Below, piece by piece: positions 39,001-45,000 of a stretch of DNA of 64,000 nt. The stretch covers positions 1 through 64,000 of the forward strand of contig JBBIPC010000005.1 in assembly GCA_037443035.1 (NCBI GenBank). The letters run 5' to 3'. The position numbers were made by a program. This DNA is from Chthonomonadales bacterium. GTDB lineage: Bacteria; Armatimonadota; Chthonomonadetes; Chthonomonadales; CAJBBX01. Numbering within the stretch: the first letter of the stretch is position 1; each line of letters begins with the position of its first letter.

Positions 39001-42000
39001 CCCGTGGGTTCTGTTCGCCTTCGCACTGGTCATGTTCGCCCTGGCACTCTCCCAGTTCGACCGGCCTGACGGGAGACCCATTTGGGAGTTTCAGTTGCCC
39101 GGCTTCCTTCGGAACCGTGCACAGTCTCGTTCTGGGATCGTTGGTGCGCTGTTGATGGGCATGATGGTAGGAGTAGTTGCGGCGCCATGCATTGGACCTG
39201 CGGTCATTGCTCTGCTCCAGTGGGTGGGAATGCAGCAGAGCCCTATGTTAGGCTTCGCCGTATTCCTCAGTCTTTCTCTTGGTCTCGGACTCCCCTATCT
39301 GTTCCTCGCGACTGCATCCGGCTCGGTCAGGAACCTGCCCAGGGCCGGTGAGTGGATGATGGGCGTGAAACACATCTTCGGTGCCGTATTGATCTGGATG
39401 GGCTTCTACTACCTCCAGACGCCCCTGGCCCTGGTCTATGCCGGGTTGCCGAAGATCGCCATGGTCGGCGTGACCGTCCTGCTGGCGCTCTACCTGCTCT
39501 TCCTCGACCGCTCAGGCGCAGGGATTCGTGGTTTCGCGACGTTCCGACGCCTCGTCGGCATCAGTGCAGTAGCTCTTGCCGTCTGGTTGGCCATGCCCGC
39601 TCCCGCAGAGCGCATCGCGTGGAAACCCTACAGCGATACGGCGTTGGAAAAGGCTATAGCAGAGCGTGAGCCTGTGCTCATAGACTTCACTGCAGCGTGG
39701 TGCGCTGCCTGCAAGGAACTGGAGGAGAAAACCTTCACGGACCCACGTGTAGGTGAGATCTCCAGGCGCTACGTGGCTCTCCGCGCCGACATGACGAACT
39801 ACCGCGGTCCTGAGGCGCAGAAGTGGCAGAAGATCTACGGCATCAGCGGCCTTCCGACGATCGTCCGCCTGACCCCTCTCTAGACTGGTATTCCTGCCTG
39901 ATGCGGCGTAACATGGCCTGACGCTGGAAGTGATACCAGGCGCCGACAACGACGGCAGCCAGCAAGAGCGCACCGAGGCCGAGCAAGCCCGGCGCCACAG
40001 CCTCTGCCGCCTTCGGTGACACACCCTCCTCCTCGTGTGCGAGAGCACTCAAGGGTGCCACTATCATCAGCAGTGCGAGCATGCCCCCGAGCCAGGATGC
40101 CAAGGACGCCCATTGTCTCACACGCTTCACTTTCTTACCCTCCACCGCTGGCGTTCGCCACCGGGAGTATATCACCTCGAACACGATGGGCGAAGGAAGG
40201 ACCGGCCGTCCATCCGGCAGAAATAGGCGGCGTAATGAACGGGCTCGAGGGCAATGGGGACAACTCCCAAGCTTCGAATGGTCCTCGTGCCAACGACGCC
40301 TGCTTCGAGCACGTCGTTGTCGTCCTCAACCCTGCCGCTGGACGGGGACGGGGTCGGCGTTGGCAGCCCGTCCTCGCGCAGGGCCTCCGCCGTGCGTTGG
40401 GTCGAGAATGCCATATCGAATTCCGCCACACAGAGCTCGATCGAGGTGCCGAGACGGTGGCACGCCAGGCGCTCCATGACGGGGCCGACCTCATTATCGC
40501 GGCAGGTGGTGACGGTACCCTCCACGGTGTTGTCAATGCTCTGGCAGGGTCGGGCGTGCCGGTTGCGCAGATCCCGCTCGGCACGGGCAATGATTTCGCA
40601 CGCGCCGTGGGTATCCCGATGGACCCAATGGAAGCGCTCGAGGTGCTGCGAACCGGTTCTGCGGTACCGGTGGATCTCGGGCTCAAGGGTGAGAGGTACT
40701 TCATCAACGCTGCCGGTTGCGGATTCGATGCAGCAGTGGCGGAACGTATCCAGCGGGGGTTCCGGAGGCTTCGGGGAACACCGGCGTATGTGGCCGCCGT
40801 CATCGCGGCGCTCCTGCGGTACCGTGCCACAGACATGACCGTTACGGTGGATGGCACGACCGTCGCACAGCGGGCGATGCTGTGCGCCGTTGCCAACGGT
40901 CGAAGCTACGGAGGAGGGATGCGTATCGCGCCTGAAGCCCGGTGGGATGATGGTTTGCTGGACATCTGTGTTGTCGCAGCGTGCACACCGCTGGAGTTTC
41001 TGCGAGCGTTCCCCATGGTCTTTCGCGGGGAACACGTGCATCACCCGAAGGTGACTCTGCTCCGCGGGGCCTCCGTCACCGTAGCCAGCGAGCCTGCAGT
41101 ATCGGTGCTCATGGATGGGGAGCTATGCGGCGCGACCCCTGTATCCTTCGGCATTGCACCCGGTGCCCTGCAGTTTGTAGTACCATAGGATAGTGCGGTT
41201 GCTTGGTGAAACATCGGCACCGAGGAGAATACGGGCACCGGCTGGTGACGCAGCGTTCCAGACGAGGGCAACGAGAGGCCGACGATGATCTGGAAACGAT
41301 GGCTGACAGCAGTACTAGGAGTTCCGGCCCTGCTGATACTCTGCTGGTTGGGGCCGAAGGTCTTCGCACTGACTATTACGCTCGTGGCAGTCGTCGGTCT
41401 GGGTGAGCTTCTTGCAGCCTACCGAAAGGCCGGCTTTGGACCCAGTGTGCTCGTCGCGGTATCGGGTCTCCTGGGGCCCATGTTGCCCCTTCTCTTCCCG
41501 CACGGCGTCCGTGCATCGGCGATCTCTCTGTCGGGCCTTGCATCGGTCGCGTTGGCGCTCTTCCTGAGCGGGCTCATTCACGAAGTCACCGTTGCGCACC
41601 GAGATCAGAAGGTGACGACGGGCGCGAACGTCGGGCTCGGTATGCTGTGTGGCGGCTACATCGCGTTGTTCGGCGGTATAAGCATGCTTCGTGTCCCGCG
41701 AAACCTGGACGCGGTCCTGCCGGTGGCGAATGCCGACGCGGGCTTCTTCCTCGTCTTGCTCGTGCTCTGCTGTGTCTGGGCGACGGACACCGCAGCCTAC
41801 TACGTGGGGAACAGCGTCGGTTCCGTGAAGCTAGCTCCGGCACTCTCGCCCCACAAGACAGTAGAGGGAGCCGTGGGGGGATTCGCGGCTGCGGTCATCC
41901 TCGGTGCGATCCTGGGTCATCTCCTGCTGGGGCGGGCGTTGCTGGGCTGGGGCATCGGCGCCGCGGCCGGCATCGCAGGCCAGCTCGGCGACCTCTTCGA

Positions 42001-45000
42001 GTCGGCGCTGAAGCGGGAGCTGGGCATCAAGGATTTCGGCTCTATCGTTCCAGGTCATGGCGGTATCCTCGACCGCTTCGATAGTCTATTGTTCACTGCG
42101 CCAGCCGTCTGGATATTGGTCCTGGCGCTGGGCTGATGGAGCGCCGGCTGATCCTGGCTTCGGCCTCTCCACGCCGGGCGGAACTCCTCGCTGCCATGGG
42201 GCTCCGCTTCGACGTGGTTGTCTCCAATGCTGACGAGACGCCTGTGCCCGGCTCGTCACCGGCAGAAGCCGCCGTCACGATCGCCTTCAGCAAGGCGCTC
42301 CAAGTCCAGCACATTCACCCCGATGCCATAGTGCTGGGGGCGGACACCATGGTCATTCTCGGCGATCCGTATCAGAAAGACGGTGTCGTCTACTATGCCA
42401 AGCCTGCGGATCCTGACGATGCCGCGCGGATGCTGACGGAGCTATCAGGCCGGATTCACCATGTCGTGACGGGTGTGGCTGTCGTATGGCGTGCATCCGA
42501 TGGAAGGTTGTGTGGGCGTATGGAGGCGGTCGCGACGCGAGTTCAGTTCAGGGTGCTCACCACCCAGGAGATCGCGGCTTACGTGGCAACGGGTGAACCG
42601 ATGGACAAGGCGGGTGCCTATGCCATTCAGGGGGGTGCGGCGGCGTTCGTCGAGCGCGTGGAAGGCGACTACTACAACGTGGTCGGGCTCAGCCTCGCTT
42701 CGGTTCGGCGTTTGTTGCGAGGGCTGGTGCGGGACGTGGGCCGTGTACCCCCCGTACCTCGGGTGCCCTTTCCCATCGCATCGTGCTGAGCTGTTGGTCG
42801 CGGGTCGCATCGCGGAGCAGGAGCGGCGCAACCCTCTCCACGCGGAGGGATGTCCCCCGACCGCGCTTCTCCACAATCCCGTCGACGATCACCGCAGGCG
42901 ATGTCAGGAAAGTCGCGGTACATCGCTCGATGGCGTCTCCCACTACTGTCACGGGCAGCAGGCCGGTCTCATCTTCCACCTGGGCGAAAAGGACGGGATG
43001 TCCCGACCGAGTAGGGGGACGATGGGGGCGAATGTTGAGCCCTGCAACTCGCACACGCGTTCCGGGATCTCGGGAGGAAACGTCGGCCGTTCGGAGAATA
43101 CCACGCTCGTCCAGGAGGTCCCGCATGTAGGCCATGGCATGGCATTCAGCGCATACGCCCGTGATACGCCATGTCCATACGAACTTGTCCCACACAGAGA
43201 AATCAGGAATGTCCCATGCCGTCGGAGTCGGCAGCGAGGCGGCATCCCCTAGTGGTAGGCGTTGCACCACAGCCGTCGCTGCAGATGGGTTGCCAACCGA
43301 GGGCTGCGGGCCATGGGCATCTCCTGAAGATCTCCAGACCCTGTCTCCTTCAAGAATGCCTTCGAACCCACGAAGGGAGATCTTATCACTCCCTGCGGGC
43401 GATCCATCGCCTGGCCACCCCACCTCCGCACGGTAGATACGCCCCATCTCCAGGGTCTCATCGAGCCGCCACAGGATCCCCCTTCGGTGTTCGTGTAGAC
43501 TATCGAAAGCACCACAGAGGATCAAGTTCTCGATGACATCTCGGGGCACCACCACTCTCGTACAGAAGTCCAGCAGCGACCGGAAGGCACGTTCCCGTCG
43601 AGCACGCAAGATGGCCTCGATATCCTGATCGCTGATGCCGGCTACGATGCGGAAACCGAGCCGAATGGTCTCCGGATCTTCTGCCACGCACTTGTCGCAG
43701 CTCTCGTTGATATCCACCGGCAAGATTCGCACGCCTCGTCGTCGGGCTTCGCCGGCCAACGTATTGGAGCTATAGAAGCCCATGGGCTGGTGGTTCATCA
43801 TGGAAGCGAAATGCTCAGCGGGATGATGGACGGAGAGATAAGCGGTCTTGTATCCGGTCAGTGAGAATGCAGCCGCATGGCCCTCGATGAAGCCATACCC
43901 GCTCCATCCTTCGATCTGGTCGAAGAGCCTGTCCAGTCGCTCCTCGGAAAGCTCAGGGTATCGCTGGAGAGCGCGTTCGATGAACCATCGCCGTGGCTCA
44001 TCCATGGTATCCAGCTTCGCATGGCGCTTGAGGCTCTTCCGGAAGCGATCCGCCTCGGCGTCCGAGCAGCCCGTCATGACAGCCACGACTTCGTTCACCT
44101 GCTCCTGAAAGACAATGCATCCGTAGGTCTTGGCTAGGACTGGCACCAGGCAGGGATGGACCCAATCGGCTCGCGCCCAGCCGTTGCGACATGCCACGAA
44201 CCGCCGCACGACATTGCCGCGGACCGGACCAGGGCGGATGAGCGCCACCGATGCCACAAGATCCTCGAAGTGTCTCGGCTCGAGAATGACCGCCAGGGAA
44301 AGCTGAGCTGCACTCTCGAACTGGAATGCACCGATGGCTGCGCCAGCCTGCATCATCCGATATGTTTGCCGGTCATTCAGCGGTAGCCGGTCGTAGCGAA
44401 AGTCAGGATGGAGGTCCCGAATCTGAGCCTCGGCATCCGCCACTGCCGAAAGCGCCCGTAAGGAGAGGACATCGAACTTGATAGCGCCTACCTCTTCCGC
44501 ATCATCCTTATCGAGGGTCCAGATCTGCGTAATCCCTCGGGCCGACGGCTGCAGAGGTGCGATCGTAGCAAGGGGCACGGCGCTGATGACCACCCCCGAG
44601 GAGTGGGTGCCAATATGCCTGGGGAAGCCTGCAATACGGCCGCAGAGATCGAAAAGGAGGCGGAATCTGTCCATGAGATGGCGATGAGGTCGGAGCTCGG
44701 CAAATCGTTCGAAGGCCGCTTCGATGCGGTCGGCTCGGACACTGTGATGGAGCCTCTTAGCGAGGAAATCCACCGCATCCGCCGGGAGATCCAGGACCTT
44801 GCCGAGATCTCGCACAGCCGATCGTGCCCAGAAGGTGTAGAAGGTACAGACCATGCCCACATGGCCTTCCCCGTACTTCTCGATGATGTGCCGAAAGACC
44901 TCATCTCGTCGCTCCGAGGGGAAGTCCATATCAATATCCGGCGTGCGCCCAGGTGAGAGGAACCGCGCAAAGGGCAGGTTGCGCTGGATCACGTTCACAT

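Follow-up and report, generated by a model that had tools for sequence, protein, structure and literature searches.

The gene at 41285..42136 (+ strand) of the window, the whole stretch of 64,000 nucleotides that was analysed, raises the question of which enzyme uses its product. The encoded protein of 283 amino acids is CdsA, the synthase of CDP-diacylglycerol (CDP-DAG), with PF01148 above the cut-off (E 2e-56) and the C-terminal CdsA motif; the gene is present in one copy in this genome and is kept in 121/121 Armatimonadota genomes. CdsA makes an activated lipid whose consumer is absent from the standard annotation. Upstream lies a YegS/DgkB-type lipid kinase gene (40235..41188, + strand; DAGK_cat and YegS_C, TIGR00147 over cut-off), whose product, judged by its domains, is probably a diacylglycerol kinase; the family is shared with the Caulobacter ceramide kinase CpgB, and a homolog adjoins cdsA in 8 of 30 cdsA loci. 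The two genes are separated by a gap of 96 bp (41189..41284), in which relatives carry a third gene, here called X, in the order kinase–X–cdsA; X itself is located outside the window here, after ispE (C4:218270-219034, minus strand). The Maf-like nucleotide pyrophosphatase gene overlapping the cdsA stop (42136..42789, + strand; PF02545, E 3e-60) is probably outside the lipid pathway; a homolog was found near cdsA in only one of the 12 locus layouts displayed (L049).

The statement of an earlier note that this genome encodes no CDP-alcohol phosphatidyltransferase (CAPT) was confirmed by PF01066, two further profiles, a motif scan and tblastn. PF01066 gave no match at E<=10 in the assembly (61 contigs, completeness 100%), and the previous figure of 13 matching genomes among 14 controls was obtained again, the exception being Deinococcus radiodurans. 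The note had allowed for the escape of a very divergent member from the HMM. A profile built from 26 CAPTs of Armatimonadota, applied with --max to all 43,311 stop-to-stop frames of at least 50 amino acids, reached a best E of 3.5, the positive control being the recovery of 12/12 Deinococcota CAPT loci at E<=1.4e-7; that of the divergent Deinococcota CAPT reached a best E of 7, and tblastn with the fetched CAPTs a best E of 0.15. The CAPT motif is DxxDGxxAR...GxxxDxxxD. Its absence, noted before for the proteins with an uncontrolled pattern, extends in the full form to all 43,311 frames, and the motif is present in 25/26 fetched CAPTs. The match from one relative (G022), described as lacking the GxxxDxxxD half, in fact keeps all four aspartates and is missing only the glycine. 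PS decarboxylase is missing as claimed (0 matches in this genome), and no called gene contains two HKD motifs, so that the claimed lack of a PLD-type phospholipid synthase holds; a complete lack of PLDc matches does not, as PLDc_2 matches two genes, one for a polyphosphate kinase (C1:2031-4136) and one, at a restriction-modification-like locus, for a PLD-helicase (C4:83832-87353), neither of which, from their sequences, looks like a lipid synthase. PF03034 (PTDSS/Lipocone) gave no match in this genome, and the control genomes gave none either. The reported presence of PgpP (C11:30321-30821) and Lgt (C10:96120-96929) was borne out, both exceeding their curated cut-offs.

The comparison across phyla showed that any CAPT occurs in only 56/301 Armatimonadota genomes, some of them canonical and PgsA-like with the full motif (L001–L004), so that the "whole phylum" in which the step was said to be replaced means about four fifths of it. 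Nor is the step universal in bacteria, as had been supposed: the absence of PgsA is tabulated for 2/2 Armatimonadetes and 5/6 Deinococcus-Thermus genomes, all PgpP-positive (PMC11804483, Dataset S2), and TIGR00560 was found in 0/71 Negativicutes genomes. A CAPT is present in 88/121 Deinococcota, mostly of one divergent type; D. radiodurans, which has no PF01066 match, also retains PgpP and Lgt. PgpP was over the cut-off in 108/121 Armatimonadota genomes, and its matches were only weak in 11/11 sampled members of family f6. The retention of CdsA in all 121 genomes and of PgpP in most supports the view that a non-homologous enzyme must consume CDP-DAG. In this respect the former proposal is supported; phosphatidylglycerophosphate (PGP) as the product of that enzyme is not.

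An indication of the product comes from Chthonomonas calidirosea, in which all phospholipids are phosphatidylglyceroyl-alkylamines (PGAA), according to a meeting report (PMC3367263); membranes almost without CDP-DAG-derived phospholipids, the other option formerly considered, are not supported. In PGAA the phosphatidyl group is on the 2-OH of glyceric acid and the carboxyl group is amide-linked to a long-chain amine. This lipid evidence, the only report of PGAA from the phylum, comes from a single meeting abstract, which concerns one species in a family other than that of this genome. For the Thermus and Deinococcus lipids, which include the main phospholipids of Thermus, the enzymes of the third chain and of polar-head replacement are stated to be unidentified (PMC9636437), and no genes assigned to PGAA biosynthesis were named in the papers found. 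The standard head-group enzyme is most likely missing because the three-tailed glycerate-amide lipid of Deinococcus and Thermus is built instead, and very probably this bacterium makes PGAA in place of PG.

The candidate for the transfer step is X, a MobA-like protein of 254 amino acids and an ortholog of Thermus TTHA0179 (PDB 2DPW). It belongs to this family over its full length by both sequence (E 5e-26) and structure, the model (pLDDT 95.9) aligning with 2DPW at Z 29.4, with an rmsd of 1.8 for 229 residues. X was found in 300/301 Armatimonadota at E<=1e-10, two of these being weak (G044, G127), and in 121/121 Deinococcota in single copy. It is immediately upstream of cdsA in 7 of 30 cdsA loci, from families f14 and f29, and cdsA linkage was seen in six families with f16 (L237), f26 (L223; second copies, convergent), f2 (L226) and f17 (L231; degenerate), these four loci and a second X–cdsA pair in f14 (L225) having been selected for second X copies and not randomly. 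At L243–L245 a second copy shares a lipid cluster with genes of the CAPT, PAP2, phosphoesterase and MFS types. X is no strict replacement of PgsA, since it coexists, together with the protein Q described below, with strong PgsA-like CAPT matches in 3/3 non-Negativicutes Bacillota examined (G303–G305), and 28/71 Negativicutes genomes have neither PgsA nor X.

Residues D102, D240 and D242 of X are invariant in 150 sequences and agree, together with the fold, with metal-binding aspartates; R144, R181 and K182 are also invariant, and residues 171-223 form an amphipathic insert of hydrophobic and basic helices. The triphosphate-binding Arg of GxGxR and the Lys that accompanies it are not conserved among 140 sequences, the Arg being present in only 9 and the Lys position after it being K/R/E in 40/33/25%; the length of the loop varies and 58/140 have an Arg elsewhere within six residues, so a substitute is possible. 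The NCBIfam equivalogs of MobA, MocA, IspD, CofC and CobY gave at best 30 bits (cut-off 164). The closest solved folds are all nucleotidyltransferases, IspD being next after 2DPW (Z 18.3), and the GT-A-like fold of IspD and GlmU is matched at Z 17-18; this is a point against a phosphatidyltransferase.

Homologs of X occupy the position of CC_1153 in the ceramide-phosphoglycerate cluster of 3/3 proteobacterial records. A profile match of 100% to the gene at this position was obtained with hhalign (E 4e-43, 246 columns), the orthology with CC_1153 being a matter of gene order and annotation and not of the Caulobacter sequence itself. The neighbour at the CpgD position matched X at 78.7% over 52 columns only, which is not the full-length similarity of a CpgD-type CDP-glycerate synthase, and one and the same cluster contains an X-type and a CpgD-type gene as distinct genes. 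CC_1153 has been described as a MobA-like NTP transferase needed for CPG2; its deletion causes slow growth and ceramide accumulation, and a raised spot assigned as CPG persists, so that CC_1153 is dispensable there for the first glycerate. The Caulobacter authors propose that it consumes NTP and place it in the CPG-to-CPG2 step. On account of its distribution, the cdsA linkage, the CC_1153-position homology, the amphipathic insert and the missing NTP-binding Arg, X is the best candidate for the CDP-DAG step, and the chances that it is specifically a CDP-DAG-consuming phosphatidyltransferase appear evenly balanced.

The same lipid could also be made with the opposite activation, X being a true cytidylyltransferase of the CpgD or CofC kind which makes CDP-glycerate or activates the lipid phosphate, while CdsA or another enzyme joins it to the lipid. 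The fold, the presence of 3-phosphoglycerate guanylyltransferase among the weak profile matches of X (E 4.5e-8), the Caulobacter scheme and the finding that CpgD makes CDP-glycerate, favouring D-2-phosphoglycerate (PMC12275187), all agree with this; however, X is without the triphosphate-binding Arg used by CpgD (Arg16), is distinct from the CpgD-type gene of the same cluster and has a membrane-like insert that suits a lipid substrate, and no role would be left for CDP-DAG and PgpP. This reading is unlikely, though one to be taken seriously.

Two other genes are associated with X by their distribution. The product of an acyl-ACP-reductase-like gene (C1:282408-283499) gives matches to PigE at E 8e-60 and to AAR at E 1e-27 and contains C298 and an NAD(P)-binding glycine motif, the catalytic Cys motif being present in 14/15 fetched copies; these motifs place it among the AAR/TAD-family thioester enzymes, and against TIGR04058 (cyanobacterial AAR) it scored 97 bits, below the cut-off of 450. 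The neighbouring protein Q (C1:283553-284473) has the same fold, its best structural matches being to AAR (Z 14.4, rmsd 4.2, 250 aligned) and to TAD, a putative amidation domain (Z 13.0, rmsd 4.9, 262 aligned), and the next one having Z 9.9; in its sequence neither the catalytic Cys nor a GxGxxG motif is found. The database label of Q, quinate 5-dehydrogenase, was rejected on the basis of no NCBIfam family, no GxGxxG and a Z of 9.4 versus 14.4 for AAR. An ortholog (G345) matched no Pfam family. Q is present in 120/121 Armatimonadota and 119/121 Deinococcota. X and Q occur in the same 43 of 71 Negativicutes genomes and are both absent in the other 28, a split among kin that need not represent many independent losses; the reductase is found in 42 of the 43, and X is not adjacent to either gene. 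In G303, with X and Q, the reductase was not found with the query used. The reductase and Q probably make an alkylamine or amide, and it is likely that both belong with X to the PGAA pathway.

This genome-for-genome tracking of Q and the reductase speaks against a function of X alongside ispE in the metabolism of isoprenoids (MEP) or of undecaprenyl, the phosphatidyl transferase being another, unseen gene. Such a role would account for ispE near X in 55/60 X-centred loci from three phyla and for IspD as the next structural match, but the IspD family is represented here by a gene of its own (C9:30348), none of 30 Deinococcota X loci has ispE within 1.5 kb, and the recurrent cdsA linkage and the sphingolipid-cluster position point elsewhere; it is therefore improbable. 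Ordinary PGP and PG made by a profile-invisible CAPT or by a Lipocone-type head-group exchange enzyme, Lipocone enzymes having been proposed as lipid synthases (PMC12419801), would explain PgpP and Lgt simply, and divergent CAPTs are known in Deinococcota. Nevertheless, three profiles, motif scans and tblastn were all empty here, D. radiodurans keeps PgpP and Lgt without a PF01066 match, and the lipids reported for C. calidirosea are all of PGAA type, so this explanation is distinctly improbable. A gap in this fragmented assembly, suggested by a PF01066 match in one (G149) of 15 genomes of the same family, is contradicted by the lack of a match in the other 14 and in 245/301 genomes altogether, and may be set aside.

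The pathway to PGAA, with X as phosphatidyltransferase, would begin with PlsX/Y/C and the kinase, yielding phosphatidic acid, and CdsA, yielding CDP-DAG, a chemistry that is established knowledge; the genes identified for this step are cdsA, the kinase and plsY. As a peripheral membrane enzyme of nucleotidyltransferase fold, X would bind the CDP moiety with Mg2+ via D102, D240 and D242, hold 3-phosphoglycerate or its amide in the basic pocket of R144, R181 and K182, and transfer the phosphatidyl group to the 2-OH with release of CMP. The 3-phosphate could then be stripped off by PgpP, which acts in this way on PGP. By homology, the reductase-like protein may convert acyl-ACP to the aldehyde, from which the alkylamine may be formed by an aminotransferase of class III (C2:143350-144606); Q would form the amide or act as a partner of the reductase, which is the weakest step, and a glycosyltransferase might finally put a sugar on the 3-OH. 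For the whole explanation, PGAA and not PG built by this gene set with X as phosphatidyltransferase, we see an even chance. It is tempting to speculate, somewhat more doubtfully, that the TTHA0179/2DPW family adds to CAPT and PLD/HKD a third class of phosphatidyltransferase acting on CDP-lipids, with a nucleotidyltransferase fold, forming with PgpP, the AAR-like reductase, Q and the aminotransferase a PGAA pathway ancestral in Terrabacteria, which would provide Armatimonadota and Deinococcota with their main phospholipids, survive unnoticed in many Bacillota and have been taken over for ceramide head groups by Proteobacteria.

With the CDP-DAG (Kennedy) route CdsA–PgsA–PgpP the proposed pathway has CdsA and PgpP in common, and the logic would be alike: activation, transfer to a C3 phosphate ester, dephosphorylation. 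It differs in the absence of a CAPT, in the proposed transferase of nucleotidyltransferase fold, and in the glycerate-based acceptor and third, amide-linked chain of the proposed product. If the phosphatidyl group of CDP-DAG is transferred by X, membrane synthesis would have a new enzyme class at one of its central steps; the retention of PgpP without PgsA would be accounted for, a function for CC_1153 suggested, and two database labels ("MobA-like" and "quinate 5-dehydrogenase") corrected. The Caulobacter ceramide-phosphoglycerate pathway (CpgA–D, CC_1153) likewise has a lipid kinase, a head group of glycerate phosphate and a homolog of X, but its backbone is ceramide, and it uses a CAPT (CpgA) together with CpgD, which synthesizes CDP-glycerate.

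Fatty-amine synthesis (TamH; TabE/TabA) employs an acyl-ACP reductase and a class III transaminase, the two-step chemistry having been shown for tambjamines; TabE has an ALDH fold, so the precedent covers the chemistry only, and amidation by TAD is itself a hypothesis. The reductase described here shares homology with AAR, the N-domain of PigE and the carmabin TAD and retains the catalytic Cys; in two phyla it belongs to the core genes and lies outside any secondary-metabolite cluster. If the proposal is true, alkylamine-amide lipids are predicted in the Negativicutes and clostridia carrying these genes. The annotation hole is thereby turned into a testable pathway, with candidates in the genetically tractable Thermus and Deinococcus, one of them with a crystal structure (2DPW). 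The phosphoglycolipids of these genera (PGL and PGLN, from phosphatidyl-glyceric alkylamine) have the same core as that reported for C. calidirosea, and X and Q are near-universal in both Armatimonadota and Deinococcota. In Deinococcota the divergent CAPT is mostly kept and the reductase is fused to a PlsY-like domain (two genomes), whereas each of the three Armatimonadota examined has a single PlsY, and its reductase stands free.

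The flagged open reading frame encodes CdsA (window 41285-42136, + strand); it is preceded by a gene of the YegS/DAG-kinase family (40235-41188) and followed by maf. On that gene converge, as read from the sequence, an ImuB/Y-family-like gene and then a probable error-prone DnaE2-like polymerase gene (42689-47579, - strand), and two neighbouring short CHAD-like genes (36381-37434, + strand) may represent one split CHAD domain. In the assembly, which comprises 61 contigs with a completeness score of 100%, the CDP-alcohol phosphatidyltransferase (CAPT) model PF01066 gave no match at E<=10, 13 of the 14 control genomes being positive and Deinococcus radiodurans being the one missing from that list. 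A custom profile of 26 Armatimonadota CAPTs reached a best E value of only 3.5 in all six frames, and the same profile picked up 12/12 Deinococcota CAPT loci as a positive control. A second custom CAPT profile, motif scans and tblastn were likewise empty, and a hidden CAPT was rejected on these grounds. PF08009 was negative as well, with weak controls (2/14 positive, none over the cut-off), PTDSS (PF03034) had no match either here or in the controls, and no phosphatidylserine decarboxylase was present. A PLD synthase was also rejected, both PLDc_2 matches being a polyphosphate kinase and a PLD-helicase. PgpP and Lgt both scored over curated cut-offs. The observation of the earlier note, that CdsA, PgpP and Lgt occur without CAPT or PLD lipid synthase, was confirmed. 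Its proposal that an unknown, non-homologous enzyme replaces CAPT was upheld in part: a user of CDP-DAG other than CAPT is supported, phosphatidylglycerophosphate as the product is not.

Within the phylum, CAPT was present in 56 of 301 genomes, CdsA in 121/121 and PgpP over cut-off in 108/121, family f6 accounting for 11 of the 13 misses. The neighbours of PgpP, in our own reading mltG-, yqgF-, aroE- and pilB-like, yielded no candidate.

A phosphatidylglyceroylalkylamine (PGAA) structure was described for all phospholipids of Chthonomonas calidirosea in section 2.30 of a meeting report (PMC3367263). Thermus phosphoglycolipids are built on this same core, and the enzymes that form their third chain and replace their polar head 'have not been identified' (PMC9636437). 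In Dataset S2 of PMC11804483, the paper on PgpP, both Armatimonadetes and 5/6 Deinococcus-Thermus genomes score 0 for PgsA and 1 for PgpP. The absence of PgsA is therefore already in print, as table rows, and no paper explaining it was found. The lipid and the absence are each known, separately; a link of the two to the genes described here was not found in the literature covered. The consulted part of the Fervidibacter paper yielded no lipid data. The most likely account, to which we give about an even chance, is a CDP-DAG route to PGAA in which a 254-aa MobA-like protein, termed X, would act as the transferase.

X is encoded immediately upstream of cdsA in 7 of 30 cdsA loci, in the order kinase-X-cdsA wherever the flank extends to the kinase. 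In the genome studied this slot is a 96-bp gap, and X is encoded at C4:218270-219034 (-), behind ispE. Its Thermus ortholog is TTHA0179, a target of structural genomics (PDB 2DPW; E 5e-26; Z 29.4 with an rmsd of 1.8 across 229 residues) named in no paper found; X passed no NCBIfam cut-off. X was found in 300/301 Armatimonadota genomes, two of them weak matches, and, as a single copy, in all 121 Deinococcota genomes; in targeted loci of families f16, f26, f2 and f17, X or a second copy of it adjoins cdsA. A metagenome scan with query P0057 returned no loci. Against the proposed account we counted the position of X near ispE in 55/60 X-centred loci; ispE lay within 1.5 kb of X in none of 30 Deinococcota loci.

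The protein has a nucleotidyltransferase fold, in which D102, R144, R181, K182, D240 and D242 were invariant in 150 sequences. Residues 171-223 constitute an insert of four helices, hydrophobic and basic, with no transmembrane segment. We infer that X is a peripheral membrane enzyme binding a CDP-linked lipid and a doubly anionic acceptor. X could instead be a nucleotidyltransferase within the same PGAA pathway, an alternative that we regard as less likely. CpgD of the Caulobacter ceramide-phosphoglycerate (CPG) cluster binds triphosphate via Arg16, whereas the glycine loop of X is without a conserved Arg and its Lys is variable.

Distant homologs of X were located in proteobacterial sphingolipid clusters. 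The order in Roseomonas haemaphysalidis (spt, hypothetical, kinase, CAPT, phosphoesterase, HIT, lptF/G, GNAT, X, CpgD-type gene; similar clusters occur elsewhere) corresponds to Caulobacter CC_1162-CC_1152, with X at the position of CC_1153, which has been described as a MobA-like NTP transferase (PMC11324152). In the profile comparison X matched the gene at this position at 100% over 246 columns and the CpgD-type gene at 78.7% over 52. According to the same source CC_1153 was once thought essential; its deletion mutant grows slowly, accumulates ceramide and misses CPG2, and its CPG spot is raised, which counts against a simple first-glycerate role. The mechanism of the first glycerate step is left open by Zik et al. 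(PMC9393093) and the CpgD papers (PMC12275187, PMC13228409). Of the literature matches listed for CCNA_01211, CC_1153, 2DPW and phosphatidylglycerate, none was relevant except the Caulobacter paper and the preprint of it. The protein at the CpgC position matched no Pfam or NCBIfam family and no PDB sequence, so that its proposed role as CDP-ceramide synthase was not confirmed. Roseomonas and Pseudomonas sp. JS425 also carry CPG-like clusters on plasmids (L208-L210), the JS425 cluster adjoining IS5 elements.

Candidates for the alkylamine branch of the PGAA route came from a comparison of the proteins of the genome with 1.45 of the 1.85 Mb chromosome of G345, a member of the Deinococcota; the 496 best-hit pairs with >60% coverage were judged by eye among the matches listed, and further pathway genes may have been missed. 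This yielded an adjacent pair, an acyl-ACP-reductase-like gene (C1:282408-283499) and a gene termed Q (C1:283553-284473). The reductase is similar to the N-domain of PigE, to cyanobacterial acyl-ACP reductase (AAR) and to the carmabin TAD, and it keeps the catalytic Cys. In G345 (L295:15486-17642) and G330 (L266), two Deinococcota with 3-4 PlsY-family genes each, it forms a fusion with a PlsY-like domain. A PlsY paralog as the amide synthase of Armatimonadota was unsupported, 3/3 genomes tested having a single PlsY. A reductase-like domain at G305:C5:456806-458005 lies within a frame of 891 aa that may encode a fusion with an aminotransferase, as in PigE. Q belongs to no family, its automatic label being 'quinate 5-dehydrogenase'; the nearest structures to its model (pLDDT 92) are AAR (Z 14.4) and TAD (Z 13.0), and neither the Cys nor the NAD motif is present. 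At the sequence level Q and the reductase showed no similarity, the link being structural only. Q was found in 120/121 Armatimonadota and 119/121 Deinococcota genomes, a 63% homolog is named from C. calidirosea, and in G128 a copy adjoins a second cdsA-X pair. Another candidate for this branch is a class III aminotransferase (C2:143350-144606), whose G345 ortholog matches at 53%. Tambjamine alkylamines have been shown to arise by reduction of acyl-ACP and subsequent class III transamination (bioRxiv 2025.08.11.669332); amidation by TAD is a proposal only (bioRxiv 2024.10.28.620694).

PgsA was absent from all 71 Negativicutes genomes, which are kin and do not represent 71 independent trials. 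By our own reading of the tables, X and Q occur in an identical set of 43 of these, and the reductase in 42, the exception being the genome in which the Q match is truncated. The genes next to Q and the reductase in Negativicutes resemble dus, greA and lysS, apart from one unassigned gene. The other 28 genomes are without PgsA, X and Q, so that neither their anionic lipid nor the donor used by Lgt is accounted for; in G302, X-positive and the sole Negativicutes genome whose loci were inspected, PssA stands beside psd.

Several further results were counted against the proposed account, among them the 28 Negativicutes without PgsA and X, and a lipid donor of Lgt that is unaccounted for. Three Bacillota genomes carry X and Q alongside strong PgsA-like matches, one of them having no reductase match with the query used. 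CAPT was present in 88/121 Deinococcota, mostly as one divergent type (L213-L222), which is some 255 aa long and usually follows cmk. This type was rejected as the universal PGAA enzyme, as it was not found in the genome studied or, in a search without positive control, in 5/5 PF01066-negative genomes. Family f6 has no PgpP over cut-off; in one f6 genome a NagD-like HAD gene lies beside a second cdsA. In 8/8 fetched f11 loci (L096-L103) PgpP carries a GtrA-type transmembrane domain as a C-terminal fusion, which suggests dephosphorylation coupled to lipid flipping.

Second copies of X lie within clusters holding CAPT, PAP2, phosphoesterase and MFS genes, which suggests that some of the sporadic CAPTs act as accessory head-group modifiers and not in PG synthesis. 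Such clusters in CAPT-positive genomes (L243-L245, L104-L105) comprise kinase, CAPT, PAP2, second cdsA, second X, metallophosphoesterase and MFS_2 transporter genes, with a radical SAM gene in one. At L231 (G055, family f17) a second cdsA-like gene, with a MraY-like gene nearby, is preceded by a degenerate X that has lost its N-terminal motif as well as the two invariant basic residues. An MFS transporter at C5:110287-111549, on the same contig past the window end, has an ortholog in G345 and homologs beside cdsA, X or CAPT in several loci, and is a candidate lipid flippase.
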